A stretch of 64,000 bases of DNA from an uncultured Ectothiorhodospiraceae bacterium (GCA_947258845.1 CAMYJZ010000002.1:5678-69677); one strand, 5' to 3'; positions 18,357 to 60,040 are shown, counted from the stretch's first letter. The notes: generated from the sequence alone by a model not told the origin. Made by a program: numbers and translations.

Positions 18357-21300
18357 TCATGATTTGTCGCTTCCGTGATGGCCCGGGAAGTCGATCAGAT
18401 CGGCATGCAAACCACACTTGCCGGCGGCTTCAACAAACACCGCCGGATCAATAACGTCCTGGTCATACTCGATCAGCATGAAATGCGGCTGTTCATCATG
18501 ACAGGCGGCGGCAATGACGCCATTCATGGCCAGCAGGTGGCCCCGCAGGTATTTGCGTTGCTCGTGGGTTGCCGCCTCATCCATGTGAAGCGTTACTTCC
18601 GAAATCCGGGTGGCCTGGGTCGCCTTTTCGTTTTGCTCTATGGAAGGCGAGGTCCCACCGGCGCCCAGGAAGACAGCCTCACCCAGCGAAATGCAACCCA
18701 GCGGGATCACAAACAAGGTCAAGATAGTTGAAACAAATACACCGAACAGCAGCGAGATCGCCATGCCCTGGAAGGTCGGGTCTGTGAGAATCACTGCCGA
18801 ACCCAGCACCAGTGCCATGGCGGTAATCACGATAGGCCGGGTACGCGCCTTCACTGCGGTGATCACGGCATCGTAAAGCGGCACCCCGTCCTTGACCAGG
18901 ACGATGGTGAAATCTATCAGCAGGATCGAGTTGCGCACGATAATACCTGACAGGGCAATCCAGCCGATCATGGAAGTGGCGGTAAAGTCGGCACCCAGCA
19001 ACCAGTGGCCGGGGACGATGCCCAGCATGGTCAGGGGGATAGGCGCCATAATGATGGCCGGGATCGAGAAATTGCCGAACTGCCACACGACCAGCATGTA
19101 GATGACGACCAGGGCCACGGCGAAGGCCATGCCCATGTCACGGAAGGTCTCGTAGGTCACCGTCCACTCGCCGGACCATTCAAATCCGGATTGCGATACG
19201 GATTCCGGCGGGCCGGTCCAGGTGCCTTCCAGTTTGACACCATCCGGGGTCGTGTACTGTTCCAGCCGTTCCTGCACATCGAACATGGCGTAAATCGGCG
19301 CCGCATACTTGCCTACGGCATCACCCACGACGAACTCCACCGGTTGCAGGTCCTTGTGAAAGATAAATGGATCGCGCACGCTCTTGACGAACTTTCCAAG
19401 TTCGGCAAGCGGTATGGTGCGGCCATCCTGGGTCATTACCGGCAGGTCGCTCAGGTTGCTCAGCCGGGAGCGTTGTGCCAGGGGAATCTGGAGCAGGATA
19501 TAGGTCGGCTCGTAAACCAGCGCCTGCTTGATATCGCCAAGCTTGAATTCACCCATGGCCATGGCCAGATGCTGGTTGATGGTCTCGACCAGCACGCCCT
19601 GGGTGGCGGCCTTGTCCAGGTCGACCTCAAAGCGCCACGTCTCGAGATCGTTGCGCATGAAATTGTCGACATCGGCCAGGTATTCCGATTCATTGAAAAT
19701 GGCGGTCATATCGGCGGCAACCTGGCGTCGGGTCGCGTCATCCGGCCCGTGGATTTCGGCCACCACGGTCTGCAGCACCGGCGGCCCCGGGGGCATCTCC
19801 ACGATAGTCAGTACCGCACCCGCCTGGTGGGCAATGGGAGTCAGCAGTTCACGGGCTGCAGTGGCAATCTCGTGACTGCTGCGCTTGCGCTCCTTCTTGT
19901 CCAGCAGTTTGACCTGGATCTCGGCCTGCCAGGGGAACTGGCGCAGGTAGTAATGGCGTACCAGGCCGTTGAAATCGAACGGCTTGGCAGTGCCAACATA
20001 ATTCTGTATGTCAATCACCTCGGGGAAAGTCCGCAGCGCATCCGTCAACTCGGCTGTCAGGCTCGCGGTGTCCGGCAGTGCGGTTCCGTCCGGCATGTCC
20101 AGGGTCAATGAAAATTCGGATTTGTTGTCAAATGGAAGCATCTTCACCGTGACGGCATAGGTGAAGAACATGGAAACTGTGACAATGAAGGCGAACAACA
20201 GGCCGATAAGGAAACTCCAGCCATAGCGAGGGGTGTAGTACAGTGCTCCAATGGTCTTGCGATAGAATTGCTCCAGCCAGCCATCGATTTTCTCGTCCCG
20301 TGCCTCCATCTTGCGGAGTTTGGCCATGGAAGGAATCATGCGCATTGCGAGCCAGGGTGCGAACACCACCGCGGCGATCAGGGAGAGAACCATGGCCACA
20401 GAGCCCAGTGCCGGGATCGGTTCCATGTAGGGTCCCATCATGCCGCGCACAAAGCCCATTGGCAGCAGGGCCGCGACTACCGTATAGGTGGCCAGCACGG
20501 TAGGGTTGCCTACCTCGCGTACCGCATCGACCGCAATCTCGGTGGTGGTCTCGCCCGCCTTCAGCCAGCGACTGTAGATGTTCTCCACGATAACAATGGC
20601 ATTGTCTACCAGGAAGCCAATGGAGAATATCAGCGCGAACAGACTGACCCGGTCGATTGTGTAACCAAGCACCATGGCGATAAAGACGGTGACCACCAGT
20701 ACCACCGGAATGGTAACCAGCACCACAATCGCCGGTCTCAATCCCAGTGACAGCCAGACCAGCAGGGTTACCGCGCCGGTGGCAATGACCAGTTTGAATA
20801 ACAGGGAGTTGACCTTGTCATTGGCGGTCTTGCCGTAGTTGCGGGTGACTTCCACGTGGACATCATCGGGGATCAGCAGGCCCTTGAGATCCTCGACCCT
20901 TGCCAGCACCCGGTTGACCACGGCAACACCGTTACTGCCGCGCTGTTTTGCGACAGCAATCGTGACTGCCGGTGCGGCAATGATCCCGGGGTTGTCACTG
21001 GCCGGGCCGGTCGTATGCGTCACGATACTGCGCGCATCTTCCGGTCCCTTGCGTACCTCTGCGACATCGCTCAGAAATACCGGCAGACCCTGGTGGCTGC
21101 CAACCACCAGTCGCTTGAAGTCATCGACCGATTCCAGGAACTTGCCGGTTTCAACGAAATAATGCTTGCCCGCCTGTTCGATAGACCCAACGGTTTGCTC
21201 GGTATTGAAACCCTGGATGGTGGCGGCGATATGTCCCATGCTGATACCGTAGCCGGTGAGCCGTTCGGGTTGTATTTCGACAATCACCTGCTCTGCCCGG

Positions 21301-21884
21301 CCACCGGATATAAAGGCGGTCCCCGTCTGCGGCAGTGATTTGATATCCTGCAATACGCTGATGGCGAGTGTACGCAACACCGCATCATCCAGTTCCTGTG
21401 ACCACAGGGTCAAGGTAACGACCGGTACGTCATCGACTTCCTTGATCTTGACGAGTGGCATTTCCACGCCGGGCGGCATGACATCCAGGTTCTGCTGGAT
21501 CTTGTTATGAGTGAGCACAATGGCGCGCTCGATTTCCTCGCCGACGTGGAATTCCAGGGTAATGATGCCCATTTCCTCGTCACTGACTGAATAGACATGC
21601 TTGACGCCGGCAATCTCGCTGACGATCCGTTCCAGTGGACTGACTGCCAGCCTGGACATCTCCTGGGATGATGCGCCGGGCATGCGCAGGAATATATCCA
21701 CCATGGGTACCGAGATCTGTGGATCCTCCTGACGGGGAGTGGCCAGCAATCCGTATGCGCCCACGAGCATAAAGGCAATGAACAACAGGGGAGAAAGCGG
21801 AGAGTGGATAAAGGAGTCGGCCAGGCGGCCTGCAAAACCAAGTTCATCCTTGGTGAGCATGTCTTTTTTATGGGTACTGGTCAT
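18357..21884 (-). CDS. RND efflux transporter permease (12-TM, CusA/CzcA-like N-terminus) with a ~110-aa extra C-terminal cytoplasmic HMA-like domain
   Basis: 1175 aa. RND hallmarks (FLVDNAIVIVENI, two large periplasmic loops, duplicated 6-TM halves). The C-terminal extension ...RISEVTLHMDEAATHEQRKYLRGHLLAMNGVIAAACHDEQPHFMLIEYDQDVIDPAVFVEAAGKCGLHADLI has an HMA-like beta-alpha-beta-beta-alpha-beta pattern, with His in place of the CxxC site. Confidence 0.85.
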   Translation of the reverse strand: MTSTHKKDMLTKDELGFAGRLADSFIHSPLSPLLFIAFMLVGAYGLLATPRQEDPQISVPMVDIFLRMPGASSQEMSRLAVSPLERIVSEIAGVKHVYSVSDEEMGIITLEFHVGEEIERAIVLTHNKIQQNLDVMPPGVEMPLVKIKEVDDVPVVTLTLWSQELDDAVLRTLAISVLQDIKSLPQTGTAFISGGRAEQVIVEIQPERLTGYGISMGHIAATIQGFNTEQTVGSIEQAGKHYFVETGKFLESVDDFKRLVVGSHQGLPVFLSDVAEVRKGPEDARSIVTHTTGPASDNPGIIAAPAVTIAVAKQRGSNGVAVVNRVLARVEDLKGLLIPDDVHVEVTRNYGKTANDKVNSLLFKLVIATGAVTLLVWLSLGLRPAIVVLVTIPVVLVVTVFIAMVLGYTIDRVSLFALIFSIGFLVDNAIVIVENIYSRWLKAGETTTEIAVDAVREVGNPTVLATYTVVAALLPMGFVRGMMGPYMEPIPALGSVAMVLSLIAAVVFAPWLAMRMIPSMAKLRKMEARDEKIDGWLEQFYRKTIGALYYTPRYGWSFLIGLLFAFIVTVSMFFTYAVTVKMLPFDNKSEFSLTLDMPDGTALPDTASLTAELTDALRTFPEVIDIQNYVGTAKPFDFNGLVRHYYLRQFPWQAEIQVKLLDKKERKRSSHEIATAARELLTPIAHQAGAVLTIVEMPPGPPVLQTVVAEIHGPDDATRRQVAADMTAIFNESEYLADVDNFMRNDLETWRFEVDLDKAATQGVLVETINQHLAMAMGEFKLGDIKQALVYEPTYILLQIPLAQRSRLSNLSDLPVMTQDGRTIPLAELGKFVKSVRDPFIFHKDLQPVEFVVGDAVGKYAAPIYAMFDVQERLEQYTTPDGVKLEGTWTGPPESVSQSGFEWSGEWTVTYETFRDMGMAFAVALVVIYMLVVWQFGNFSIPAIIMAPIPLTMLGIVPGHWLLGADFTATSMIGWIALSGIIVRNSILLIDFTIVLVKDGVPLYDAVITAVKARTRPIVITAMALVLGSAVILTDPTFQGMAISLLFGVFVSTILTLFVIPLGCISLGEAVFLGAGGTSPSIEQNEKATQATRISEVTLHMDEAATHEQRKYLRGHLLAMNGVIAAACHDEQPHFMLIEYDQDVIDPAVFVEAAGKCGLHADLIDFPGHHGSDKS

Positions 21885-22008
21885 GACTACTCAGTCCTGT
21901 CTTGTTATCCCCGTCACCGGGGCCTTGTTTTTTTCAGGATTAACCGGAACCGCCCGTGAGCCGGTCCTGCAGCATTTCAGGTTAGTTGTTCTGTGTCAGA
22001 AACCGTGC

Positions 22009-23154
22009 TTACTCCATCGCTCCTGACATGGTTGAGGGTGTCGGCTTCTTCAGGATGCGGTCTCCGGCCTGGATGCCCGAGATGACGCTGATTTGCCCGT
22101 CACTGGTTTGCGTCCCGAGGCGCAGCACCTTCATCTTCAGGTGACCGTCCTCGCTGACCTTGAAGACCGCCGGGAGGCTGCCGCGCCACACGACGGCGGA
22201 TGCCGGAACCACGGGCAGTTCCTGTCCCTTGTGCGCCAGGTCCGGGATCAGCACTTCGGCGTAGGTGCCCGTTTTGGCCTTGATCCCTTCCGGGATACCG
22301 AATTTCACCGTTGTGGTATGGCCGCCCTTCTGGGCCATGGGGAACACCCGGTCCACCTTGACCTGGATTACGCTGCGTTCACTTCCCACCCTGGCCATCA
22401 GGGTCTCGCCTTCCTGGACCGCGTCCAGCAGACGGGTGGGAACCTCGACCTGGATTTGCATCTCGGTGGTATCGGCAAATGCAAGCAAGGGCATCCCCGG
22501 TTGCACTATATCGCCCACCTCGATCATCTTTGAGACGATGATCCCGTCAAACGGCGCCCGGCTGAAGGTGTTTTCAATGGATTCATCAAGTTCCCGGATG
22601 GCCTGCCGTGCCTGCAGAACACTGTTGGACGCGGTCTGTAGCTGGGTTCCCTGTCCGACCAGGCCTGCATGCCGCTCATATCCCGGTTCGCCCTGGCCCG
22701 TCATGGAGCGCATCGGGTCCGTGAACATGCTGAACATGCTGGGCATGCCCCCCATCATGGTATTGGATTGTGCGTTGGGTGACAGGACCTCGCGATTGAA
22801 CTGCACATAGGCGTTGTGGTAGGCGGCCTCTGCATTCGCGAGTTGTGCTTCCGCCTGTTTGCGTTTGGCCAGCAGGGCCGATTGATCCAGCTGGACCAGT
22901 ATCGTGTCTTTGGTAAAGGCATCGCCTTCTTCGCCGGCTATGAACTCCACATCGCCCGGCATCTGGGCAGACAGATTCACCATCTTGCGCGCAATAACCG
23001 TCCCGCCCAGGGTGATCACTCCACCGGTATCGGCTTCTTTTACTGTAATGATTTCCGGGCCGGAATCAGCAGGTGTCTCATCCGCAGAGGCCTGTGCGAA
23101 ACAGCCACCCGTCAGGGTGGCTCCGAGAATCGTGGCAACAAGAAAACGAATCAT
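22009..23154 (-). CDS. RND efflux periplasmic adaptor (membrane-fusion protein) with a Met-rich insertion
   Basis: ORF 22009..23301. A signal/lipobox-like start MIRFLVATILGATLTGGC begins at 23154. HlyD/MFP coiled-coil and beta-barrel regions. Met-rich segment NTMMGGMPSMFSMFTDPMRSM (nt ~22700-22760), like CusB/CusF Cu(I)/Ag(I) sites. 125 bp upstream of the RND gene on the same strand. Confidence 0.8.
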   Translation of the reverse strand: MIRFLVATILGATLTGGCFAQASADETPADSGPEIITVKEADTGGVITLGGTVIARKMVNLSAQMPGDVEFIAGEEGDAFTKDTILVQLDQSALLAKRKQAEAQLANAEAAYHNAYVQFNREVLSPNAQSNTMMGGMPSMFSMFTDPMRSMTGQGEPGYERHAGLVGQGTQLQTASNSVLQARQAIRELDESIENTFSRAPFDGIIVSKMIEVGDIVQPGMPLLAFADTTEMQIQVEVPTRLLDAVQEGETLMARVGSERSVIQVKVDRVFPMAQKGGHTTTVKFGIPEGIKAKTGTYAEVLIPDLAHKGQELPVVPASAVVWRGSLPAVFKVSEDGHLKMKVLRLGTQTSDGQISVISGIQAGDRILKKPTPSTMSGAME

Positions 23155-23816
23155 AATCACGCAACCTTTAATAGTTGTCTCGTTAATGTGTATACGTAGC
23201 ATATTATTTATACGCCCGGGCGGCCAGAAACTCAAGGCGGACGATAAATTATCATAATAATAACAGATAGTTATGTTTTTACGAGGCCGGTACCTTTCCA
23301 CGATATGCCATCAGGACCTGAAGCTCCGGAAGCGGAGCGGATTTCCCCTGCTCATGGACCCGGGGACGAGCCGGGGCGCGGATACACCGACAAGCGAACT
23401 CGTGGCCGCCATGCGTCAACAAGGTCAGCCGGCTGGCAGTTGCAGTTCGTGGCTCAGGAGCGCGTTGTGATTGGCTGCTGATGTACTACCCGTTCCAGAA
23501 GGCCTGGAGCAGATGAATAGATGAGATCACCACGATGGAGGCCGCAGACTTTCTGCTTCAGCGAGACGGGATGGGGAGAGTGCCGACGGCCTGTTTTATA
23601 AAATCAAAAGTGCTCAGGTTTTCGGCTGTTTTGTCGTTATGAATAAAAACGGCGGCTAACAGGACCGGTCGCGGGATATATCAGGCGGTTTTTCTCCCGT
23701 CAGCACCCATACCCAGAAGGATTCAGGTCCAGCCGGCGGCCAACTGCGGACGGCTGTCGGGGTGGAACAAAAGTGATTTTAAAACAGTATGTTAAACCTT
23801 TAATCGGGATCATGCG

Positions 23817-26800
23817 ATGAGTAAAAACAGCGAAACACCTCAGGAATCCAAACGGGACAATCCGAATTCCGGCGACGGACCGGGTGGCGGAAACGCCGTT
23901 ACCGGGCCTGTACAGGGGGCAACGGGATTTGTCCCGAAAGTGGCCGAGTTGAACGAGGAGATCAACCGGCTGTTTGGAAAAATGCATGGTCTGGATGAGG
24001 CACTGCGTGAAAGTGATGATCGCGCCCGGCAGATTGAGGAGAAGAGCCATACGATCGCCGAGCTGCAAGACCAGATTGAAGAAAAGAGCGGTGAAATCGA
24101 TCGCCTGCAAATTGACATTGACGGGCTGCACGACTCCCTGAGCAAGCAGGAACAGCGGTTCGAGGACCAGCTGCATGGCAAGCAGTCGGAGATCGGTGAA
24201 CTGGAGGGCAGGGTATCGGAGCGTGGCCAGGAGGTCAGCCGGCTGTATGGACATGTCGAGGAAAAGGGCCTGGTCATCAACCAGCTGACCGAACAGCTCG
24301 GTCAGCGTGATGAAGAGCTTGTCAGCCTGCAAGGCGATGTAGAGGGCAGGGAACAGACGATTGCCCGGCTCGAGGGTGAACTCGGGGAACTGGATGCCAG
24401 CTTTAGGGAAGGCAAGGAACGCAGCGATGCGCTACTTGAGGAGAGGCAGGAGCAGATCGCCCGACTGGAGTGGAAGGTCAAGGAGAAATACAAGGAGATC
24501 ACCCAACTGCATGGCAAGATCCATGACCTCGGTGACGAGTTGCGTGGCAGCGAGGAACGTGCCGAACAGCTTTCCCAGGAAAAGACCCAGGTCACTGTTG
24601 AACTGGAGGGGCGAATTGCAGGGAAAGAACGCGAAATTTCAGAATTAAATGAACGTGCTGGTGAAATGGCGCAGGAAATCGCCAATCTGACCGGACAGGT
24701 GAATGAACAGGCGCAGATCATCACCGGCCTGGAGGAGCAGGCCGCGGAACTGCAAAACAGCTTGCGATTTGCCGAGGAGCAGGCCGAACAGCGGCTGGAA
24801 GAGAAGCAGCGGGAAATTGCCGGCTTGCATGGACAGGTCGAGGACCTGAATGCGGCTATGCATGCCAGCGAAGAGCAGGCCGCCCGGCAGATTGCAGAGA
24901 AGGGTGATGAGATCACGCGCCTGGTTGCGGATCTTGAAGAGAAAGACCAGGCACTGGTTCAGTCGCAGGCAAGTGCCAGAGAGAAAGACGAGGCCATCGA
25001 CGGGCTGGAAGAGAGCATTCAGCAGTTGAACATGAGCATGCGCACTGTAGAAGAGCGGGCCGCGCAGGAACTCGAGAGCAAGCAGAAGGAAGTCACTGAG
25101 CTGGAATGGAGCGTCAAGGATAAAAACGCTGAAATCAGTGAATTGCACGGGAATATCCGTGATCTGAGTGCCGAGCTGAGTAACTCTCAGGAGCAGGCCG
25201 AGCGCCAGCTGGATACGAAATCACGGGAGATCGAGCAGTTCGAGACCCAGGTCCGGATGCTGGAGCAGGACAAGCGTGAGAGTGCCGAGCGTACCGGGCA
25301 GGAATTGCAGGAAAAGGCAAAATATATCAGTCAACTTGAAGCCAGGCTGGAGCATCTGAATACGGCCCTGCATGAAAACAAGGAAAGTGCGACACAACAG
25401 ATAGCAGAACAGACCCGGGTCGCTGAGACCCAATCACAGCTAGTTGCCCAGCTTGAGCAGCAGCTGGAGCAGCAGCAGGCTGCCATGAATACCAACGTCG
25501 AGAACAGTGCCCGGGAACTACAGGCCAAGATGCAAGAGGTCACTCAGTTGTCCAAGGCGCTGGAACAGAAGGCTGATGAGGTCACTGAGCTGCATGGCAA
25601 GGTCCGCGAGGTTGGTGCAGAACTGGATGCCCGTGAGGCGCATGCCGCCGAGCAGGTGCAGGAACATGAACAGGTGGTTCGCCAGCTCAAGGAAAGAATC
25701 GGGGAACAGATGACGACCTTGCAGGATGTTGCTGAGCAGGCCAGAAAGCAGCAGAAGGGGAAGATGCAGACAATCGGCGAACTCGAGAAGCAGCTCAGGC
25801 AGCAGTCGGCGGCCATGGCGGATGTGGTCGAGGAGGCCCGGCAGCAGCAGGAACAGCAGAGGCAGACGATCGGCGAGCTCGAGGAGCAGCTCAGGCAGCA
25901 GTCGGAAAGCGGCAGTGGCCAGGCCAGCAAGTATGCGGAAGAGCTCGAGGCAAGCCAGGAAACCATCAAGCGGCTCACTGCGGATATCGATGAAAAAGAT
26001 AAGGAAATCAGTAATCTGAATAACAAGTTCGAGGAGGTGAATACCCGCCTGGGTGAGAGCAACGCGCGTATCGCCTGGCAAAACAAGGAGAATTCCAGGG
26101 CCATCAACCAGCTGAAGGCCCAGCTCAAGCAGGAATCCGTCGGCATGCGCGAACACACAAGCCAGGCCGCGCAGCAGCTGCAAGAAAAGGACGAGGAGAT
26201 TGCAGAAAAGGCGCAGCTCATCAGCCGCATGGAGGAACAGGTCCGGGAGATGCAGGCCTCAGGGAAGGCGGCACAGGAAAGGGCCGAGCAGCTGAGTGCG
26301 GAAAATGCCCGCCTGTCCAAGACGGTGAAGGCATCTGAACAACAGGACCGGCCGGCAGCCACTAGCGGTGGCAATGAAACGGTATCGGGGAACAAGGAAC
26401 AGGAAGTCGTCAAGTTGCAGAATACGGAGATTGCCCGGCTGCAGGAACACGTCCAGAAACTTAAGGTCAAACTCAATGAGAATGCCGAGCGACAGCTGCA
26501 GAAAAAGCAGGAGCAGAGTTCGCAGCCGGTGACCAACGCAATCAAGACCGTGATGGAAGACAAGCTGAAGAAGCTGAGTACCCTGGACACGCTGACCGGG
26601 ATGGTGAACCGTCAGCACTTCATGAAGGTGCTGGACGCATCGGTCAAGACTGAAGACGCGGCAGGTCAGTCGGTGCTTTACATCCTGCTGCATAACTTCA
26701 GGGATATTCGCGAGAAGATCGGTGTGTCTGACAGTGATGTGGTCCTGCGCAATGTTGCAAGCATCATCCAGGCCGATCTTGGTAAGCAGGATGTGGCATC

Positions 26801-27878
26801 TCGCTTCGGCTACTACGTATTCACCGTCCTGCATCAGGGGAGTGATGCGATGACGGCTAACCAGCTTGCCGAACAAATTCTCCACAAGCTGGAGAATCAT
26901 GTTTTCAATGCAGGGGAGCACACTGTCAGGGTGAGTCCGAGTATCGGTATCAGCGAGGTCAGCAATAGCGTACATAGCGCCGAGGGCCTGATCCAGCGTG
27001 CCGATCTTGCCTGCGAGGTGGCCCGTTCATCCAGTGGAACCAGGGTCTACACTCACAATTCAGCGGTAGAGGAACAGCTTGCTCCGGAGCATGAAACGGA
27101 GTCGCACCTGATGGTGAGGAAGACGCTGCAGGATGAGCGGTTCTACCTGGTTTACCAGCCAATAGTCAGTCTTGCAGAAGACAAGCAGCAGCGCTACGAG
27201 GTGTTGTTGCGGATCCTTGATGAAGATGGCGAGGTTGTTCTACCCAGCCAGTTCCTGAAAGTGGCGGAATCGATGGGCCTGAGTGGTGAGGTGGATATCT
27301 GGGTGATCGAGAATGCCTTCAAAAAGCTCGCGGAACTGCAGCGCGAGGACAAGGATGCCACCTTCTATATCAAGGTCTCGGGCAAGACCATCGCCGACAG
27401 GGAGCTTGCCCTGTGGATTGACGCGAAGATGAACGATTACCAGCTGCAGCGCGAGAACGTGGTCATCGAGATTGCAGAAGAATCCGTGCTCAATGATATG
27501 GAAAACAGTATGGCATTTGTGACATCCATGCATAACCTGGGTTGCAAGGTGGCACTGGAACATTATGGTGCATCAAGTCCTCCCCAGGTTCTCAAACGTC
27601 TTCCCGTCGATGTCCTCAAGGTGAATGGCGGCCTGATTGCGGGTATGGCGGGCAGCGAGGAGAACCAGGTCACTGTGAAGACCATCATCACGCTGGCGCG
27701 AGATCTCGGTATGGAATGCGTCGCTGAACAGGTCGAGGACACTGTCGTGCTGGCACTGCTGTGGCAGTACGGTGTCCAGTTTGTCCAGGGGAACTTCGTC
27801 CAGATACCGAGCAGGAATCTCGATTACAATTTCGAGGCCAGCGTCACCGGCAACGAGTCCAGCGTTTTCTCCGCGTAA
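23817..27878 (+). CDS. Giant coiled-coil protein with C-terminal degenerate GGDEF and degenerate EAL (EVL-type) domains; putative c-di-GMP receptor or scaffold
   Basis: 1353 aa. About 900 aa with heptad-like E/Q/K/L-rich repeats and recurring ~90-aa modules carrying ELHGK/GLHGQ/ELHGN motifs. GGDEF-like region with RFGYYVF in place of RYGGEEF. EAL region with EVLLR, but DDFGTG replaced by EHYGAS and KIDRSF by KVNGGL. No TM or signal peptide. Confidence 0.8.
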   Translation: MSKNSETPQESKRDNPNSGDGPGGGNAVTGPVQGATGFVPKVAELNEEINRLFGKMHGLDEALRESDDRARQIEEKSHTIAELQDQIEEKSGEIDRLQIDIDGLHDSLSKQEQRFEDQLHGKQSEIGELEGRVSERGQEVSRLYGHVEEKGLVINQLTEQLGQRDEELVSLQGDVEGREQTIARLEGELGELDASFREGKERSDALLEERQEQIARLEWKVKEKYKEITQLHGKIHDLGDELRGSEERAEQLSQEKTQVTVELEGRIAGKEREISELNERAGEMAQEIANLTGQVNEQAQIITGLEEQAAELQNSLRFAEEQAEQRLEEKQREIAGLHGQVEDLNAAMHASEEQAARQIAEKGDEITRLVADLEEKDQALVQSQASAREKDEAIDGLEESIQQLNMSMRTVEERAAQELESKQKEVTELEWSVKDKNAEISELHGNIRDLSAELSNSQEQAERQLDTKSREIEQFETQVRMLEQDKRESAERTGQELQEKAKYISQLEARLEHLNTALHENKESATQQIAEQTRVAETQSQLVAQLEQQLEQQQAAMNTNVENSARELQAKMQEVTQLSKALEQKADEVTELHGKVREVGAELDAREAHAAEQVQEHEQVVRQLKERIGEQMTTLQDVAEQARKQQKGKMQTIGELEKQLRQQSAAMADVVEEARQQQEQQRQTIGELEEQLRQQSESGSGQASKYAEELEASQETIKRLTADIDEKDKEISNLNNKFEEVNTRLGESNARIAWQNKENSRAINQLKAQLKQESVGMREHTSQAAQQLQEKDEEIAEKAQLISRMEEQVREMQASGKAAQERAEQLSAENARLSKTVKASEQQDRPAATSGGNETVSGNKEQEVVKLQNTEIARLQEHVQKLKVKLNENAERQLQKKQEQSSQPVTNAIKTVMEDKLKKLSTLDTLTGMVNRQHFMKVLDASVKTEDAAGQSVLYILLHNFRDIREKIGVSDSDVVLRNVASIIQADLGKQDVASRFGYYVFTVLHQGSDAMTANQLAEQILHKLENHVFNAGEHTVRVSPSIGISEVSNSVHSAEGLIQRADLACEVARSSSGTRVYTHNSAVEEQLAPEHETESHLMVRKTLQDERFYLVYQPIVSLAEDKQQRYEVLLRILDEDGEVVLPSQFLKVAESMGLSGEVDIWVIENAFKKLAELQREDKDATFYIKVSGKTIADRELALWIDAKMNDYQLQRENVVIEIAEESVLNDMENSMAFVTSMHNLGCKVALEHYGASSPPQVLKRLPVDVLKVNGGLIAGMAGSEENQVTVKTIITLARDLGMECVAEQVEDTVVLALLWQYGVQFVQGNFVQIPSRNLDYNFEASVTGNESSVFSA
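25767..25905 (+). repeat. Intragenic tandem duplication (43-bp near-identical units CAGAC[A/G]ATCGGCGA[A/G]CTCGAG[A/G]AGCAGCTCAGGCAGCAGTCGG, 96 bp apart) encoding QTIGELE[K/E]QLRQQS twice
   Basis: Read directly from the sequence. Confidence 0.7.
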
Positions 27879-31325: not shown

Positions 31326-32447
31326 TTACCATTGTGCCGATTGTTTTTCGAATGCCGGGGAGGCGCTTTCTGTAAACGGGGCCGCCAGGGGTTCGCCGAT
31401 AAAGACGCCCTGGCCGGGCCATGCCACACTCTTCCAGTAGGCCTCGATAAGCGTCTCGCCGTCCAGGTAACGGTCGATGGCGATGTCGGGGCGGGGAAAT
31501 TTCTGCACGAAGGCGCAGGGTTCGACCACCGTGCCATAACTCCCGGAGGCACCGGCCTCCAGCCAGCGCAGGCTGCTCATCTGTTTGCTGCCGTCGAGTT
31601 TGCCCCCGACCGATGTCAGGTGGTCGGCCAGAGCGCCGGGCCGGTAGCCATTGGTGTCGATGTCATCGACCCGGGCGCGGCCGGTGAAATAGAACAGGAC
31701 ATCGGTGCGATGACGCAGGGCGTCCGCCTCGATGATCTTTATGCCAAACCGGTCGGACTGCAGCAGGGCGATGCCGGGGAAAAAACGGGCGCGCACGTTC
31801 CGTGCCCGGTCCCGGGTGCTGAGGAGGTAGGCGCTGCCGCGCGGCCGGGAACCGTCCGCGGCCATTCCCCGATCGATGAGTGACTGCACGGCGTCGAAGT
31901 CCGTCCCGGCCAGCAGCATGGCCGGGCGCCAGCCATGATCGTCGAAGGGACGCCGGCTGTCGCTGTTGAAATAGGGGCTGGCCCGGGTGGCCTTGCAGCC
32001 CTGGGCGCAGAAGGCCTCGTCGTAGCCGGCCGCGAAGGCGGTGGTGATGGACAGGCAAGCGACCCGGTAGGGCAGGGTCCAGGCCAGGGCATAGGCCTGG
32101 ACCGCGGCCGGGACCTGGCGGTTGACGTCCGCCATGACCGTCTCGAACTCGGTGCGCGGCATGACGGCACGTCCCGGGGTAAAGCGGACATGGATCAGGT
32201 TTTGCGCCGGGATCCGGCGTGTGTCGCGGTAATAGTCCGCAATACGTACGCTCAGCGGGTCATTGTCGTTGACCACAATGGCCAGCTGTTGCGCTCCGAA
32301 GGCAACGGTCGGATTGAACGCCGGTTCCTGCGGGCTGGTGGCGGCATTGCAGGCTGACAGCAGGAACAGGGCCAGCAGGCCGGGGACTGGCAGATTGCGC
32401 AGATTGATTGGAAAAGATCGCCGGGGTGACCCGGGTTGAGTGCTCAT
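31326..32447 (-). CDS. Hypothetical lipoprotein (signal peptide plus LSAC lipobox)
   Basis: ORF 31326..32483; signal start MSTQPGSPRRSFPINLRNLPVPGLLALFLLSAC at 32447. No family recognised by eye. Confidence 0.55.
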   Translation of the reverse strand: MSTQPGSPRRSFPINLRNLPVPGLLALFLLSACNAATSPQEPAFNPTVAFGAQQLAIVVNDNDPLSVRIADYYRDTRRIPAQNLIHVRFTPGRAVMPRTEFETVMADVNRQVPAAVQAYALAWTLPYRVACLSITTAFAAGYDEAFCAQGCKATRASPYFNSDSRRPFDDHGWRPAMLLAGTDFDAVQSLIDRGMAADGSRPRGSAYLLSTRDRARNVRARFFPGIALLQSDRFGIKIIEADALRHRTDVLFYFTGRARVDDIDTNGYRPGALADHLTSVGGKLDGSKQMSSLRWLEAGASGSYGTVVEPCAFVQKFPRPDIAIDRYLDGETLIEAYWKSVAWPGQGVFIGEPLAAPFTESASPAFEKQSAQW

Positions 32448-32558
32448 GTGACTGTTGAGGCCAGTGTGTGTCTCTGAATGCACCTCAAGACTAACATGGA
32501 AACAGCCAGTTACTGGCGGTGCCTATTACCTCAGGGGCTTCTACATCAATCGCGCTGG

Positions 32559-32611: not shown

Positions 32612-33400
32612 TTATTTGTTTCGACGCCGGCGTGCCACACCGATCAGGCCGATCAGGCCACTGCCGAACAGCCAGACGGCTGCGGGAACGGGTACGACGG
32701 TCGCGGTGAACAGCCAGTCACTGGCATAGATATGCTCCGGCCAGTAATCACCGCAGCTGTCCTTGTAAGAATCGAAACTGGAAACACACAGGCCATTAAG
32801 CTCAGGTCTGTGGTCAAGCCAGCCCCAGCCGGATAACCCGTCAAAGCCGCGGTGGCCTGCACCGCCTTCGTCGCCAAACTGGAAGCTCAGGCCGGAATCA
32901 TTTGCGTGGTCGCGCAATTCAAAAACGCCGAATGAACTACTCAGAACGCCAAAGTTCTGGTGATGAGCATTGACGAAGATATCATCTATACCCCCCTCGC
33001 CACCGGGCTGGGACAGGCCGACGTTGTATTCGAAGTGAATGTTCCATAATGCAGTTGTGCCACCCACGTAGGCGCCGGGATCCGGTGTGGTGTTGTCGTC
33101 CTCGCCACCGAAGGCAACGCCGTCGATGACAATCGTGCTGCCATCGTAAGTCAGCTTCATGGCGCTGTCTGCGTGGTCGAAGTCAAAGGTGTATTCCTCG
33201 TCGCTGTTGCCGGTTAGTAGACCATCCAGTCGCAGGCCGTAGAGGGGGGGTGCTTCATTACCGTCTGGATGGTTATGCAGGTTGTAAACTACGACCCCGG
33301 CCTCCGCAGAAACGGGGACAAGCTGCGCGAGGATCATGGCAAGTCCGGCCAGTATGGCAAAGAACGGCCCGTGATTTAGTGTCAATTGATTAAGCTTCAT
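32612..33400 (-). CDS. PEP-CTERM sorting-domain protein (putative exosortase substrate), Gly/Asp-rich secreted protein
   Basis: ORF 32612..33481; signal peptide start MKLNQLTLNHGPFFAILAGLAMILAQLVPVSAEA at 33400. C-terminus VPVPAAVWLFGSGLIGLIGVARRRRNK is the PEP-CTERM pattern (VPxP, TM helix, Arg-rich tail). Confidence 0.75.
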   Translation of the reverse strand: MKLNQLTLNHGPFFAILAGLAMILAQLVPVSAEAGVVVYNLHNHPDGNEAPPLYGLRLDGLLTGNSDEEYTFDFDHADSAMKLTYDGSTIVIDGVAFGGEDDNTTPDPGAYVGGTTALWNIHFEYNVGLSQPGGEGGIDDIFVNAHHQNFGVLSSSFGVFELRDHANDSGLSFQFGDEGGAGHRGFDGLSGWGWLDHRPELNGLCVSSFDSYKDSCGDYWPEHIYASDWLFTATVVPVPAAVWLFGSGLIGLIGVARRRRNK

Positions 33401-33771
33401 CGAGAATGCTCCCATTTTTTTAGCAATGGCAAGTAGATGCTCCTTAAGAAATATTATTGATTGCAAAATGTGCGCCATCATCGTCTGATGTCAGTAAACT
33501 CTCAATAAAACATAGAGATAGTTTTCTTGGCGGCGGTGCCGTCATCGTGTTTGTAAGTGTTTCTGTAATCGGACTAACACAGTCAGTCCGGGCTATATAT
33601 TTTTATCTATTTGATTTTTAATGTTATTTACAAATGATGGTACGGTGGTACCAGAGGCTGTGTGTCATGTAAAAAAAATCGACAGGCAAATTGGTCTTCT
33701 GGGTAATAGGGCGCCCATGGCAAGGGCGTCCCTATCAGTGGATTGATGGGGGTATGGAGAATTGTTCAGTT

Positions 33772-34830
33772 TCAGCGCTGTTCGGCGACAAAATCCACCA
33801 TCCGCTGGGTGGACTTGAGGGCCTGCTTGCGGATGTCTTCGGGGACGTGGATCTCGTTGTCGCCGTTTCTGAGCACCTCGGCGAGGTTGCGCAGGTGGTT
33901 CATGGCCATCCACGGGCAGTGGGCGCAGCTCTCGCAGGTGGCGCCCTCGCCGGCGGACGGGGCCTCCATAAAGACCTTGTCGGGGGCCGCCTGTTTCATC
34001 TTGTAGAAGATGCCATTGTCGGTAGCAACGATGAAGCGCTGGTTGGGCAGGCGCTGGGCGGCCTTGATCAGCTGGGTGGTCGAGCCCACCACATCCGCCA
34101 TTTCGATGACCGCCTCCGGCGATTCCGGGTGTACCAGGATGGCCGCGTCCGGGTAGCGCTCTGCCAGGTTTTGCAGGGCACTGGCCTTGAAACGTTCATG
34201 CACGATACAGCTGGCCTGCCACAGCAGCATGTCGGCACCGGTTACCCGCTTGACGTAACTGCCAAGGTAGCGGTCCGGTGCCCAGAGGATCTTCTCGCCC
34301 TTGTCCTTGAGGTGATTGACCACATCGACGGCGATGCTCGAGGTGACCACCCAGTCGGCACGCGCCTTCACTGCGGCACAGGTGTTGGCATAGACCACGA
34401 CCGTGCGCTCCGGGTGGGCATCGCAGAAGGGGATGAACTTTTCCGGCGGACAGCCCAGGTCCAGCGAGCATTCGGCCTCCAGCGTGGGCATCAGCACCCG
34501 TTTCTCCGGGTTGAGGATCTTGGCGGTCTCGCCCATGAAGCGTACCCCGGCCACCACCAGGGTGCTGGCCGGGTGGCGGTTGCCGAAGCGCGCCATCTCG
34601 AGCGAGTCGGCGACGGTGCCGCCGGTCTCGTCGGCGATCATCTGCAGGTCCTCGTCGGTGTAGTAATGGGCAACCAGGACCGCGTCTTTTTCCCGCAGCA
34701 GCTGCCTGATTTCATCGATCAGGGCCTCGCGCTCGCCGGGGCCATACTCCGGCCGGGCGATGCTCCCCGGTAGCGGGTAAGCGGGGTTCACCGGGATCGG
34801 TGCGAGTGGTTCTGCGTCTGGCTGTTTCAT
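33772..34830 (-). CDS. nadA: Quinolinate synthase A
   Basis: ORF 33772..35046. The internal start [21 protein letters not shown]... (34830) aligns with the E. coli NadA N-terminus. Later blocks such as [31 protein letters not shown] and WMAMN are near-identical. Confidence 0.9.
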
Positions 34831-39233: not shown

Positions 39234-40802
39234 CTAGCGCGTGAGACCAAGTAGCGCGCCCACCGAAACCAGTACCCTGGTGATGATGCCACGCCGTACA
39301 GGGGGTGCCGGTGGCTCAACCGTTTCCTCGGGCAATCGCCACTGCGAATGCTTGACTTCGGCGGGTGCCGGATCAGGGACGGGTTCGTCCTGGCCGCCTG
39401 CATCGACGCTGGTCTCCTGCCGGTCGGGGGGCGCCATCGCTATTCCATCATCTGCAGCCGCATCCTCGACTGCCTCTTCGAACCAGTCCGTAGCCGGCCG
39501 GGCGGTCGGTGCATCCGTGGAAATGGCGATCGAAAGCGTGGGTATCTCCCCGTCACGATCGGGCCCGGGCACGCTGCCGGTTAAGCGGTCATCAGGCGCC
39601 GGTCCTGCAAAGCTGCCCGGCAGCTCAGGTGGACTGTCGGCAAGGGCCCTGGCAGTGGTCGAATAGCCGGTATTTTCCTGTTCCTGCGGCTCGACCGGGG
39701 AGAACAGCTCGATTTCCTCGATATCGCCGGTCGTGTCGAGGGCCAGGTTCCCGGGTGTCGCGTCGGATCCGGATTGTTCCGCCACCGGGAAGGCCATTAC
39801 TGCCTCTTCCGGGGCCCGCTCCCCGGCGCCGTCAAATACCGGTTCCGCTACCTGTGTCGGGCCGCTGCCCTCGTAGACGACCTGGTTGCCACCCTGGCTC
39901 ATTGCGCGTAGCAGCCGCTGGTCGGCCAGGGAAACCAGCTCGTCGAGTCGTGTGTTTCTGCGTATGTCCGGCGCGGCAACGCCAATGCTTATACTCACGC
40001 GCACCACGCTGCGGTCGTGTTTGAAGATCCGGGCATTGATGTCCCGCCGTATGCGTTCGGCGAGATTGCGAACCCCGGTCCTGTTGACGCCGGGCGAGAG
40101 CAGGGCAAAGCGTGCGGTACCGATGCGTGAGGCCGTGTCTTCCAGGCGGATCACCGAGCCAAGGATATTGGCGGTTGCCTGGATGACAGATTCGGTAAAG
40201 GCCTCGCCGTATTCCTGGAACAGCCGGCCGAAGTCATCGATCTCGAGTCGGTACATGGCCAGGCTGCTGGAGTGCCGGATGGCATAGGAAAGTTGCTGAT
40301 AGCCACGTTCCATGAAGGAGATTTCATTGGCCAGTTCGGTCAGTGCATCAACCGTTGCATGGTCCTCCAGGGCGGTCACCTCCTGCTTCAGGGTGTTGGT
40401 GACGGCATGGGCATTGGCATGCGACTGGGTACGCGCCAGCAACAGGACGGAGTCGAACGGCTTGCCGATAAAGTCCGTTGCACCGGCCGCGCGTGCCTTT
40501 TCCATGGTGCCTTCGCTGTCATTGGCGCCGGTGATGATGATGACCGGCAGTTCGCTGATATGGAGCAGGGGTGAGTTCCTGATACGTTCCAGCAGGCCGT
40601 AGCCGTCCAGGTTGGGCATGGTGAGGTCGGATACCATCAGCGCGAATGGTTCCTGCGTGGTCAGAATCTCCCAGGCATGCTCGCCGTCGACGGCCTCGAC
40701 GGTATCGAAGTGGTTGCGCAGTATTTTGCGGGCGGTTACTCGAATGACCTTGGAGTCATCAACGATCAGCAGGCGCTGTTTGGTTGCAGGGCTATCGCTC
40801 AT
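39234..40802 (-). CDS. Response-regulator receiver (REC) fused to a degenerate GGDEF domain, with a ~200-aa Pro/acidic disordered tail and a C-terminal hydrophobic helix
   Basis: ORF 39234..40835. REC domain (LLIVDDSKVIRV..., phospho-acceptor D in MVSDLTMPNLDG). GGDEF-like fold with the active-site motif replaced (RIGTARFALLSPG where RYGGEEFAILLP is expected). C-terminus ...RRGIITRVLVSVGALLGLTR. Confidence 0.8.
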   Translation of the reverse strand: MSDSPATKQRLLIVDDSKVIRVTARKILRNHFDTVEAVDGEHAWEILTTQEPFALMVSDLTMPNLDGYGLLERIRNSPLLHISELPVIIITGANDSEGTMEKARAAGATDFIGKPFDSVLLLARTQSHANAHAVTNTLKQEVTALEDHATVDALTELANEISFMERGYQQLSYAIRHSSSLAMYRLEIDDFGRLFQEYGEAFTESVIQATANILGSVIRLEDTASRIGTARFALLSPGVNRTGVRNLAERIRRDINARIFKHDRSVVRVSISIGVAAPDIRRNTRLDELVSLADQRLLRAMSQGGNQVVYEGSGPTQVAEPVFDGAGERAPEEAVMAFPVAEQSGSDATPGNLALDTTGDIEEIELFSPVEPQEQENTGYSTTARALADSPPELPGSFAGPAPDDRLTGSVPGPDRDGEIPTLSIAISTDAPTARPATDWFEEAVEDAAADDGIAMAPPDRQETSVDAGGQDEPVPDPAPAEVKHSQWRLPEETVEPPAPPVRRGIITRVLVSVGALLGLTR

Positions 40803-41055
40803 ACCGGATCTCAAACGGGTGATTACAGTGCACATACTGATATCGACCCCCGGGACCTGATCTTTAGGCCCGGGGCAGTCCCCGGCCGGGCCCTGCGGGC
40901 ATTCATGGGCGTGCGGGCGAGGTGCTATGATGGGATGCAGTCGGGTCCGGGTTCCGGTCGGTGCGGACGGGCTGTGCGACTGCCGCCAGGGCCCGGCCGC
41001 GACTGCCGGTCGCGGGTTGGATCAGGTCCGCGAGCTATGGCAACGGGGTGTCGGA

Positions 41056-57887: not shown

Positions 57888-58751
57888 CTAACTGAGGTAG
57901 AGGCTGATGATGTCCTGGCCCCACAGCAGGGTGATCCAGCCGGCGCAGGCCAGGAAGGGCCCGAAGGGGATGGGCTGACTGCGTTCACGCCCCTTCAGGA
58001 GGATGAGCAGTATCCCGGTGGCGGCCCCGACGATGGAGGAGAACAGGATGACCACCGGCAGGGCCTGCCAGCCGACCCAGGCGCCGATGGCGGCCAGCAG
58101 CTTGAAGTCGCCGTAGCCCATGCCCTCCTTGCCGGTCGCCAGCTTGAACAGGTGATAGATGCCCCACAGGGACAGGTAGCCGGCCAGCGCCCCGATGATG
58201 CTGGCCTGGCTGTCAACGAAGACACCCCAGAGGCTCAGGGCCAGTCCGGCCCAGAGCAGGGGGAGGGTGATGTTATCGGGCAGCAGTTGCCGGTCGTAGT
58301 CGATCACGCACAGCGGGATGATCGCCCAGGTGAAGCCCAGCGCGGCGGCGGCCTGCAGTGAAAAGCCGAAATGCAGCGCCGTGACGACCGAGGCAATGGC
58401 GGTCGTTAGTTCGATGAGCGGGTAGCGCGCGGGTATGCCTGCGCTGCAGGCAGCACAGCGTCCCTTTAGAAACAGGTAACTGACGACCGGGACATTCTCG
58501 ATGGCGCGGATACGGTGGCCGCAGCTCGGGCAGCTGGAGGCGGGCCAGACCAGGTTGAAGGGCCGCTCGCTGCCGGCATCCGCCGGTTCGATTTCCAGCA
58601 GTTCCCGGCACTGCTGTGACCAGGTGCGCTCCATAATGATGGGCAACCGGTAAATGACCACGTTCAGGAAGCTGCCGATCAGCAGGCCGAGCAATGCGAT
58701 CACGGTCCCATAGGCCGCAGGGGATGACTCGAGCAGAAGCAGCAGGTCCAT
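57888..58751 (-). CDS. pilD: Prepilin leader peptidase / N-methyltransferase
   Basis: 287 aa. Cytoplasmic CxxC...CxxC zinc pairs (CPSCGH...CAACS); 8 TM segments; catalytic Asp-containing motifs. Confidence 0.9.
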   Translation of the reverse strand: MDLLLLLESSPAAYGTVIALLGLLIGSFLNVVIYRLPIIMERTWSQQCRELLEIEPADAGSERPFNLVWPASSCPSCGHRIRAIENVPVVSYLFLKGRCAACSAGIPARYPLIELTTAIASVVTALHFGFSLQAAAALGFTWAIIPLCVIDYDRQLLPDNITLPLLWAGLALSLWGVFVDSQASIIGALAGYLSLWGIYHLFKLATGKEGMGYGDFKLLAAIGAWVGWQALPVVILFSSIVGAATGILLILLKGRERSQPIPFGPFLACAGWITLLWGQDIISLYLS

Positions 58752-58813
58752 TCAGTGTGCCCGGGCGATTGAGCGTAACTGGGCTAGCGGCGCCTGACGG
58801 CCTCGATAGAAGA

Positions 58814-60037
58814 TCAGATTGCGGCGCCCAGTTTGAAGATCGGCAGGTACATGGCGACCACCAGGCCACCGATGAGGATGCCCAGAATCGACATGATCAG
58901 GGGTTCCAGCAGGCTGCTGAGGGCATCGACGGCATCATCCACCTCCTGCTCGTAGAAGTCAGCCACCTTGGCGAGCATGCTGTCCAGGGAGCCGGATTCC
59001 TCGCCGATGGCGACCATCTGCTCGACCATGTTGGGGAACAGGCCGGTCTGGGACATGGCGAACTGGAGTTGCTGGCCGGTGGCGACACTGTCGCGAATCA
59101 TGAGAACGGCATCGGAATACACCACGTTACCCGTGGCGCCTGATACCGATTCCAGCGCCTCGACCAGCGGCACGCCGGCGGCAAACATGGTGGACAGGGT
59201 GCGGGCATAACGGGCCACGGCGGCCTTGTGCATAATCGGGCCGACAACCGGTATCTTGAGGATGAAGCGGTCAAGTACCCGCCCAAATTTACGCGAACGT
59301 TTCTTGGCCTGCAGGAAGCCGATGACGGTGCCGATGACGATACCAAAGACCAGCCACCACCATTGCTGCATGAACTCGGAGAGACTGACGACCATGCGGG
59401 TAAAGGCGGGCAGGTCAGCGCCGAAGCTGCTGAACAACTCCTCGAACTGGGGTACCACGAAGATCAGGAGAATCGAGGTGACGATGACGGCAACCACGAC
59501 GACCGCGGCCGGGTAGAACATGGCCTTCTTGATCTTGGACTTGAGGTACTCGGTCTTTTCCTTGTAGGTGGCGATCTTGTCGAGCAGGGTCTCGAGTACG
59601 CCGGCCTGTTCGCCGGCATTGACCAGGTTGATTACCAGGGCATCAAAATGATAGGGGTGCTTGGCAAGCGATTCCGACAGGCTGGTGCCGGATTCGACCT
59701 CGTTCTTGATCTTCAGGAGCAGGTCGCGCATACCGGCGTTGTCATGACCGCGGCCGATGATCTCGAAGGCCTGCACCAGGGGGACGCCGGCACCCATCAT
59801 GGTGGCCAGCTGGCGGAAGAACACGGCAATGTCCTTGGGCGCTATCTTTTTCTTGGCCCCCTTGGAAAACAGGGTGGATTGCTTCTTGATCTTGAGCGGC
59901 TTGATGCCCTGCCTGCGCAGGTCGGCCTTGATCAGCGAGGGGTTGATGCCGCGGGTCTGGCCCTTGACGCGCATACCGCGCTTGTCCATGCCAGTCCAGA
60001 TGAAAAGATCCGGTTCCTTGAGTGCCTTTTCTGCCAT
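58814..60037 (-). CDS. pilC: Type IV pilus assembly platform protein PilC (GspF family)
   Basis: 407 aa. Duplicated GspF/T2SSF domains. Confidence 0.9.
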   Translation of the reverse strand: MAEKALKEPDLFIWTGMDKRGMRVKGQTRGINPSLIKADLRRQGIKPLKIKKQSTLFSKGAKKKIAPKDIAVFFRQLATMMGAGVPLVQAFEIIGRGHDNAGMRDLLLKIKNEVESGTSLSESLAKHPYHFDALVINLVNAGEQAGVLETLLDKIATYKEKTEYLKSKIKKAMFYPAAVVVVAVIVTSILLIFVVPQFEELFSSFGADLPAFTRMVVSLSEFMQQWWWLVFGIVIGTVIGFLQAKKRSRKFGRVLDRFILKIPVVGPIMHKAAVARYARTLSTMFAAGVPLVEALESVSGATGNVVYSDAVLMIRDSVATGQQLQFAMSQTGLFPNMVEQMVAIGEESGSLDSMLAKVADFYEQEVDDAVDALSSLLEPLIMSILGILIGGLVVAMYLPIFKLGAAI

Positions 60038-60040
60038 GAT

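Follow-up and report, generated by a model that had tools for sequence, protein, structure and literature searches.

A FimX-like degenerate GGDEF-EAL module on a long coiled-coil rod in an uncultured Ectothiorhodospiraceae bacterium

Gene and domain layout

The window analysed here is the whole stretch of 64,000 nucleotides from an uncultured Ectothiorhodospiraceae bacterium (GCA_947258845.1, CAMYJZ010000002.1:5678-69677), and it harbours at positions 23817-27878 (+) a single long open reading frame (ORF) of 1353 aa with an ATG start, defined by the ORF map, Pfam and homologues. The N-terminal start MSKNSETP is common to this protein and its homologues, and a GGGA lies about 9 nt ahead of the ATG. 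Sequence comparison indicates a relative of FimX in which the N-terminal sensor-like domains appear to have been replaced by about 800 residues of coiled coil. Pfam finds a GGDEF domain (residues 922-1072, E=7.7e-21; 26580-27032, +) and an EAL domain (residues 1100-1329, E=2.9e-53; 27114-27803, +), both degenerate, and nothing else above threshold; the former aligns with the GGDEF domain of FimX and the latter, overlaid on the FimX structure 3hv8, is the predicted binding site for cyclic diguanosine monophosphate (c-di-GMP). The N-terminal ~900 aa draw only sub-threshold matches to coiled-coil profiles (Filament, Rod_CreS, SMC). An earlier sequence-only reading of this locus had described a protein devoid of sensor, REC, PAS and transmembrane (TM) domains, and rightly so: Pfam and NCBIfam return no REC, PAS or HAMP on it, and no TM segment is detected, the maximum 19-residue Kyte-Doolittle mean being 0.64 in residues 1-905 and 1.2 in the whole protein.

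From the N-terminus, the protein begins with a Gly/Pro/Ser-rich tail (residues 1-38; 23817-23930, +) that is predicted to be disordered, with no secondary structure and a predicted local distance difference test score (pLDDT) of ~40, and that accounts for five of the seven prolines of the N-terminal region. At its distal end, the rod carries a conserved head motif, FVPxVAELNEEINxLxGKMHGLDxALRESD (residues 37-66; 23925-24014, +), drawn from the alignment columns of clade A, the clade of the window protein described below, in which V39, P40, V42, E44, L45, L52, G54, K55, H57, G58, L59, A62, L63 and R64 are invariant. The heptad rod proper, proline-free and acidic, covers residues 39-834 (23931-26318, +) according to heptad score, AlphaFold2 and self-comparison, and gives way to a non-helical linker, KTVKASEQQDRPAATSGGNET (residues 835-855; 26319-26381, +), where the heptad score falls, no helix is predicted and pLDDT is below 50. 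Stalk helices then run into the GGDEF domain (residues 856-921; 26382-26579, +): the full-length AlphaFold2 model has a helix at 856-899, and helices 16-60 and 67-82 of the C-terminal model correspond to residues 855-899 and 906-921.

A C-terminal module of FimX ancestry

The C-terminal ~440 aa are, by homology, a FimX module rather than a generic GGDEF-EAL pair. When residues 900-1353 were compared by phmmer with all PDB chains, the GGDEF-EAL part of Pseudomonas aeruginosa FimX (4j40) ranked first (E=2.6e-65), in a match spanning both domains plus the C-terminal DY(N/D)F tail, ahead of RbdA (2.1e-47, the next non-FimX protein), Xanthomonas citri FimX (7.8e-46) and LapD (6e-26). The tail reads D1336-Y-N-F here (27822-27833, +), DYDF in P. 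aeruginosa and NYEF in X. citri. The AlphaFold2 model of residues 840-1353 has a pLDDT of 86, and its EAL domain superposes on that of FimX with bound c-di-GMP (3hv8) with a TM-score of 0.94 and a root-mean-square deviation of 1.4 Å. Both the PDB ranking and the bootstrap analysis presented below place the module closer to FimX than to other characterised GGDEF-EAL proteins. Moreover, a scan of 185,579 species genomes recovered 62 loci related to the module, most of which encode proteins of ~695 aa with the canonical FimX architecture REC-PAS-GGDEF-EAL and a module ~40% identical; their hosts are related sulfur oxidisers, including Thiohalobacter, Thiogranum, Ectothiorhodospiraceae and other Gammaproteobacteria. 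Of the resemblance to FimX and LapD proposed in the sequence-only reading, the FimX half is borne out by 4j40, the 3hv8 overlay and a 100% bootstrap, whereas the LapD half is not, as LapD ranks far lower in the PDB and the LapD equivalog NF045673 gives 134.7 bits against a cut-off of 1020.

At the active site of the GGDEF domain, motif comparison shows RFGYY (26802-26816, +) in place of R-x-GGDEF, and the I-site RxxD is gone (GKQD). The site reads RFGYYVF here, RFGD(H/Y/C) in the relatives, RFGDSIF in P. aeruginosa FimX and RFGEHSF in X. citri FimX; the GG(D/E)EF motif of active diguanylate cyclases is absent. In the EAL domain, alignments show that the signature is kept as EVL (E1128-V-L-L-R1132; 27198-27212, +), while the metal-binding Asn of active domains is replaced by K1186 (27372-27374, +), a position that is an invariant Lys in clades A and B (the two coiled-coil clades) and in related canonical FimX proteins, and Asn in the active outgroups. 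DDFGTG is likewise replaced by E1248-H-Y-G-A-S (27558-27575, +), with E1248 and H1249 invariant; the equivalents are SQFGCS in P. aeruginosa FimX and EQFGSG in X. citri FimX. The complete set of active EAL phosphodiesterases, namely the metal ligands E, N, E, D, D and the catalytic K and E, is thus broken at N (K1186) and at DD (E1248-H1249). All EAL positions that are invariant across an alignment of active and inactive enzymes are retained, and the domain keeps QPI, E1128, R1132, P1143, F1146, D1160, E1218-x-x-E1221, K1268, E1304-x-x-E1307 and Q1324-G1325-x-F (QGNF). The K1186 and E1248-H1249 substitutions are invariant in all coiled-coil homologues and occur also in related canonical FimX proteins; they are therefore ancestral and not a sequencing error, and homologues with intact domains, which could have betrayed such an error, were not seen, the degeneracy being conserved in every one of them.

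The motif states RFGYYVF, EVLLR, EHYGAS and QGNF are as first read from the sequence, and so is the loss of DDFGTG; the accompanying claim that KIDRSF is lost holds only in part, the lysine at the catalytic position, K1268, being invariant in the family, and the replacement of the metal-binding Asn by K1186 had been overlooked. From the retained and lost residues, our reading is that the EAL pocket is probably competent for binding and defective in hydrolysis. In FimX, c-di-GMP is bound by the EAL domain at sub-micromolar affinity, and changing EVL to AAA abolishes both binding and function (PMC5595344).

The coiled-coil rod

The N-terminal region is a coiled coil and not low-complexity disorder, a counter-case that the sequence-only reading had itself raised. 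Residues 41-845 contain no proline and are rich in E (17%), Q (12.5%), A (9.4%) and L (9%). The heptad a/d hydrophobicity score, computed in 28-residue windows against shuffled sequence, exceeds the 95th percentile of the shuffles in 67% of windows over residues 41-900 versus 5% in the C-terminal domains, and Fourier analysis gives a sole peak at period 3.5 (z=6.6). The full-length AlphaFold2 model, a monomer prediction made with six homologues, has a mean pLDDT of 68 (~70-83 over most helices, lower at ~600-720) and places helices at residues 39-170, 192-373, 397-603, 620-834 and 856-899, with residues 1-38 and 835-855 disordered. The internal breaks at 171-191, 374-396 and 604-619 contain no proline and read as ordinary heptads; on the model's evidence, they may be fold-back artefacts of monomer prediction. 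The coiled coil extends over ~800 + 44 residues, somewhat less than the ~900 first put forward, and the helices of residues 39-834, placed one after another with a rise of 0.1485 nm per residue, would measure ~109 nm. Residues 1-905 carry a net charge of -72, so that the rod is strongly acidic. A Foldseek comparison of the rod with the PDB gave no match below E=1 and, above it, only generic antiparallel coiled-coil fragments. The coding strand shows a strong purine skew at 24001-26000 of the window (GC skew 0.20, AT skew 0.35), which is due to the GAG/CAG/AAG-rich codons of the coiled coil and is not a replication signal.

Self-comparison of the rod yields strong diagonals at offsets 14, 32, 46, 60, 74, 78, 92, 106 and 212 (z 6-12), and therefore the repeating unit is a 32-aa module of three heptads plus one hendecad (21+11, one stutter each), lengthened by 14-aa steps, rather than the ~90-aa module that had been proposed. 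Superimposed on this pattern are five LHG motifs, which start at residues 119, 231, 337, 443 and 592 with spacings of 112, 106, 106 and 149. The first (L119-H120-G121; 24171-24179, +) was found by motif scan within the repeat family, and the second (residues 231-233; 24507-24515, +) lies within KEITQLHGKIHDLGDEL, as located by the repeats and the self-comparison. The third (residues 337-339; 24825-24833, +) is preceded by invariant I334, A335 and G336 and starts with invariant L337. The fourth (residues 443-445; 25143-25151, +) is the best conserved, with the form E-I-S-x-LHGNI-x-DL and invariant E439, I440, S441, L443, H444, G445, N446, I447, D449 and L450, and the fifth (residues 592-594; 25590-25598, +) has L592, H593 and G594 invariant; the motifs at 443 and 592 are invariant throughout the clade of the window protein. 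The 106-residue spacing suggested spectrin-like 106-aa repeats, which were ruled out by the 32-aa unit and by AlphaFold2 helices that are continuous and do not form three-helix bundles.

The 96-bp internal tandem duplication that had been noted from the sequence is present and amounts to exactly one rod module: copy 1 (25699-25794, +) and copy 2 (25795-25890, +) are identical at 70/96 nt (73%) and 16/32 aa (50%). A general repeat search recovered it, while Tandem Repeats Finder did not report it. At the corresponding site, relatives P0001 and P0003 have a single copy of the 32-aa module, whereas relative P0002 has its own perfect 32-aa tandem duplication, with QATVIQDSAGHAKQQQEEYTQVISQLEAKLEQ occurring twice in alignment with 25699-25890 of the window; judged by sequence, the latter probably arose at the same site independently of the older duplication of the window protein. 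The length of the rod therefore changes by gain and loss of modules, and the site resembles a recurrent hotspot of module gain.

A family of coiled-coil FimX-like proteins

The exact 1353-aa protein is absent from a collection of 15 billion sequences, and the database names of its relatives are generic only. A word-indexed search returned six relatives with the full architecture, and among the best 150 matches of an exhaustive HMMER search over 1.84 billion representatives were ~17 clusters (50% identity) in which a coiled-coil N-terminus of 336-987 aa is joined to a FimX-like module; proteins of 1427 and 1249 aa belong to them. Sequence comparison thus establishes that a coiled-coil FimX-like family exists. 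No account of a long coiled-coil FimX turned up in the searchable literature; this agrees with the suggestion of an undescribed architecture, which is not, however, confined to this genome. Two of the listed Pfam assignments on the relatives, PF28422 and PF24161, are faint matches to CCDC89 and CCDC39 that reflect coiled-coil bias and were set aside.

Bootstrapped neighbour-joining trees split the FimX-like set from five GGDEF-EAL proteins used as the outgroup in every replicate (100%), and a subgroup comprising both coiled-coil clades together with canonical REC-PAS forms has 99% support. The window's clade (the window protein, L001, L002, P0002, P0004 and P0005) is recovered at 100% and the larger coiled-coil clade, clade B, at 80%, while their sister grouping receives 20-54% depending on sampling. 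Two origins of the rod, as drawn in the first tree, where the window's clade branched within canonical FimX and the second coiled-coil clade lay beyond all FimX, proved not robust: the topology rested on 6% for clade A with its sister, against 54% for A with B, and with added taxa both coiled-coil clades fell inside one subgroup supported at 99%, the internal order of which the bootstrap does not decide. By profile-profile comparison, the two clades have homologous rods (E=3e-11 versus ~3e-3 for reversed-sequence controls), which favours, at the level of sequence, either a single origin of the rod or its transfer between lineages.

Two metagenome-assembled genomes (MAGs) carry the coiled-coil form as well as a canonical FimX (L034 with L042, L043 with L012), which makes the coiled-coil form, in that clade at least, a paralogue. 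Compared with its two closest MAG relatives, the 1353-aa protein is 62-65% identical overall and 76% identical in the module; since neighbouring genes reach 76-92%, the rod evolves fast.

Genomic context

Upstream of the gene lies an intergenic region of 515 bp (23302-23816, +; ORF map), between it and a divergent gene for a membrane-fusion protein of the resistance-nodulation-division (RND) type. No RNA family was found in this leader by an Rfam scan and no sigma-70-like consensus by a direct search, and its terminator-like matches are at background level; the idea of a riboswitch or other RNA element was dropped. The RND efflux pair, an AcrB-family transporter and an HlyD-type membrane-fusion protein (18357-23301, -), separates ychF (15704-16795) from the coiled-coil gene. 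In the closest MAG loci its position is taken by other genes (a SoxA/TsdA-like cytochrome c, UPF0114); the pair is a local insertion or replacement.

Downstream come genes for an SLT_4 transglycosylase (-), an inositol monophosphatase family protein and a pyridine-nucleotide disulfide oxidoreductase, followed by nadA. The first three keep their order in the two closest MAG loci (76-92% aa identity), and a 75-78% match at the position of nadA belongs to an overlapping opposite-strand ORF (33691-34773, +) with no Pfam match. No signs of an operon were seen around the coiled-coil gene in the window. Two further ORFs, 31326-32483 (-) and 32612-33481 (-), of 385 and 289 aa, have no Pfam match, and the former is 84% identical in L002. 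A response-regulator diguanylate cyclase with REC and GGDEF domains (532 aa; 39234-40835, -), 11 kb downstream, is a putative source of c-di-GMP; its ~215 C-terminal residues have no domain match.

The pilD, pilC and pilB genes are located at 57888-61756 (-), 30-34 kb downstream of the coiled-coil gene, and show that the organism has type IV pili. MshEN domains bind c-di-GMP directly in some ATPases, and PilB (60041-61756, -) has such a domain at its N-terminus (E=1.4e-18). Beyond pilB, positions 62001-64000 have a GC content of 0.47 versus ~0.60 elsewhere and adjoin a UDP-GlcNAc 2-epimerase gene (62172-63257, -); the segment is possibly an acquired island related to glycans or pilins.

At five separate loci of the larger clade, an HD-GYP gene (DUF3391+HD_5) comes next after the coiled-coil gene, on its strand and with gaps of ~35-125 bp, and is succeeded by a gene for a short GGDEF-EAL protein with fully intact EAL motifs (EALIR, NLS, EITE, DDFGTGYSS, KIDKSF). 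This cassette, recognised by its same-strand order, is found at L034:10984-13597, L035, L043, L063/L064:11787-14484 and L065:11351-14011. At L063 it is preceded by a PAS-PAS-GGDEF-EAL gene, and at L065 two divergent genes upstream encode a hybrid histidine kinase and a REC-GGDEF-EAL protein. The window's clade (the window, L001, L002 and L066) does not have the cassette, and no synteny with canonical fimX loci is shared within 8 kb.

Proposed mode of action and alternative readings

The reading that we consider probable, with appreciable doubt, is that the protein is a non-catalytic c-di-GMP receptor of the FimX lineage in which the REC-PAS half has been replaced by a heptad coiled coil of ~800 residues. 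Canonical FimX forms an elongated homodimer whose distal tips carry the EAL domains and which is probably joined through the N-terminal REC domains (PMC3032553, PMC8389850); its GGDEF-EAL fragment alone is sufficient to form the complex of PilZ with the N-terminal part of PilB (PMC8389850), and polar recruitment depends on its EAL domain (PMC5595344). By analogy, the rod plausibly takes over the dimerisation role. Specifically, two chains would pair through the coiled coil into a rod of up to ~110 nm if extended, or shorter if folded back, with the two degenerate GGDEF-EAL modules at one end and the head motif at the other. c-di-GMP would sit in the EAL pocket and its hydrolysis would be nil or poor, because the Asn and Asp-Asp metal ligands are replaced, while the GGDEF domain would neither synthesise c-di-GMP nor bind it at an I-site. 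The nucleotide-loaded EAL module would then signal through protein-protein contact, as FimX does with PilB or PilZ-PilB, and the partner could be a type IV pilus ATPase or another protein. Rod and head would set the cellular place of signalling, or its distance from an anchor; on the simplest view, dimerisation would pass to the coiled coil, which would also add reach, and the head would provide a new anchoring site. Control of pili by this protein would follow from its kinship with FimX, and we only infer it.

Several observations weigh against this reading. The gene is unlinked to pilus genes: its immediate neighbours are housekeeping or efflux genes, and pilBCD, to which the sequence-only reading had drawn attention, does lie 30 kb away but stands in the usual pilBCD-coaE-zapD arrangement, an ordinary housekeeping placement that speaks for no linkage. 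In the larger clade the neighbours are two c-di-GMP phosphodiesterase genes and not pilus genes, which points to general c-di-GMP signalling, and the presence of both forms in two MAGs means that the job of the coiled-coil form may differ from that of FimX. These last two facts fit a c-di-GMP-responsive scaffold unrelated to pili, whose rod would locally organise turnover enzymes or other clients and whose degenerate EAL domain would be the sensor: in five loci the HD-GYP and EAL-intact genes directly follow the coiled-coil gene, and where a canonical FimX is also encoded a paralogue has room for a new role. We regard this possibility as rather unlikely, considering that the window's clade does not have the cassette and that the C-terminal module retains FimX-specific features, including the DY(N/D)F tail. 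Also against the receptor reading, the monomer model interrupts the rod at the three breaks described above, be they artefacts or real hinges.

A different objection concerns catalysis. Of the ten classical catalytic positions in EAL domains the protein retains eight, a higher number than P. aeruginosa FimX, and the Glu and His at the DD positions could, to judge from the residues, still ligate metal and allow residual or altered hydrolysis. On that basis the protein could be an active but unusual phosphodiesterase on a coiled-coil dimerisation stalk, with E-H and the retained E, ExxE, K and ExxE forming the metal site; E1128, R1132, E1218, E1221, K1268, E1304, E1307 and Q1324 are all in place, Asp to Glu is a conservative change, His can ligate metals, and accounts of FimX phosphodiesterase activity conflict (PMC7148300). 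However, every member has Lys for the metal-binding Asn and His for the second Asp, canonical FimX-type relatives carry these substitutions too, and FimX itself is regarded as an inactive pseudo-enzyme (PMC7148300, PMC8389850), so that an active enzyme seems distinctly improbable. Least likely, and given very little weight here, is a filament-forming cytoskeletal protein of the crescentin, FilP or Scy type in which the GGDEF-EAL end would only modulate polymerisation. The long heptad rod with the regular stutters of its 32-aa module (21+11), its strong acidity and the weak Filament and Rod_CreS matches agree with such a protein, but the profile scores are far under their cut-offs (Rod_CreS 17.1 bits versus 100, Filament 20.2 versus 40), Foldseek returned nothing for the rod below E=1, and the sequence offers nothing that separates a filament former from a simple dimeric rod.

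An extension of the FimX-type receptor reading, offered as a speculation with the odds against it, is that the family represents a new class of c-di-GMP effector built as a length-tunable coiled-coil tether. The head would dock on a fixed landmark in the cell (for example the pole, the envelope or the basal body of the pilus), the ~100-nm rod would keep two FimX-type sensing heads a defined distance away from it, the length would be tuned as 32-aa modules are gained and lost, and the LHG motifs would act as hinges or docking sites. Evolution of tether length by 32-aa modules fits the old duplication and the independent perfect one at the same site, as well as the N-terminal lengths of 336-987 aa.

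Relation to known systems and biological meaning

Among characterised proteins, the mode of action would be most like that of FimX and, by analogy, that of TipF. With FimX (P. aeruginosa PA4959, X. citri XAC2398) the window protein shares a degenerate GGDEF and an EVL-type degenerate EAL domain, homologous end to end, together with the EAL fold, the RFG(D/E/Y)xxF motif and the DY(D/N)F tail at the C-terminus, and both lack the DD metal ligands; FimX too forms an elongated dimer, its EAL domains lying at the tips (PMC3032553). Unlike FimX, however, it has a coiled coil of ~800 residues instead of REC and PAS, so that the four-domain architecture is absent, and it retains more catalytic-position residues than P. 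aeruginosa FimX (ExxE, AExVE). TipF of Caulobacter crescentus is similarly a degenerate EAL c-di-GMP receptor joined to a coiled coil, in which c-di-GMP governs polar localisation and recruitment of the motility machine (PMC3792480), but it has TM segments, a short coiled coil, no GGDEF domain and a flagellar role, and the window protein scores 55.3 bits on the TipF equivalog model NF051880 against a cut-off of 600. LapD is also a degenerate GGDEF-EAL protein that takes c-di-GMP at its EAL site and acts through conformational change and protein contacts (PMC3032553), whereas its TM-periplasmic-HAMP input and KVL motif set it apart from the window protein, which lacks TM segments. The rods of crescentin, FilP, Scy and SMC-type proteins likewise have hundreds of heptad residues with periodic stutters; nevertheless, none gives a significant sequence or fold match to the window protein, and crescentin and intermediate-filament profiles do not match it above threshold. 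SMC/Rad50 rods differ further in having ATPase heads, which are missing here, and the TIGR02168 score of 71 bits versus 567 comes from the coiled-coil part only. To our knowledge, none of these rods is known with a GGDEF-EAL module.

FimX, a c-di-GMP receptor that controls type IV pili, is the model case of a degenerate GGDEF-EAL protein that translates the c-di-GMP signal into a spatial choice, namely which pole builds pili, and its N-terminal half is thought to supply dimerisation and localisation. In the protein described here, that half would be swapped for a long modular rod while the receptor module is kept, splitting sensing from positioning. How much the finding is worth turns on whether the rod has a role beyond dimerising the module. 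If dimerisation is all that it provides, the family would be a modest architectural variant, so far found mainly in MAGs of uncultured sulfur-oxidising Gammaproteobacteria. If, instead, the rod is a tether or a scaffold, c-di-GMP receptors can be built on cytoskeleton-like elements, and the family would offer, with its N-terminal regions of 336-987 aa, a natural length series for studying distance dependence in local c-di-GMP signalling.

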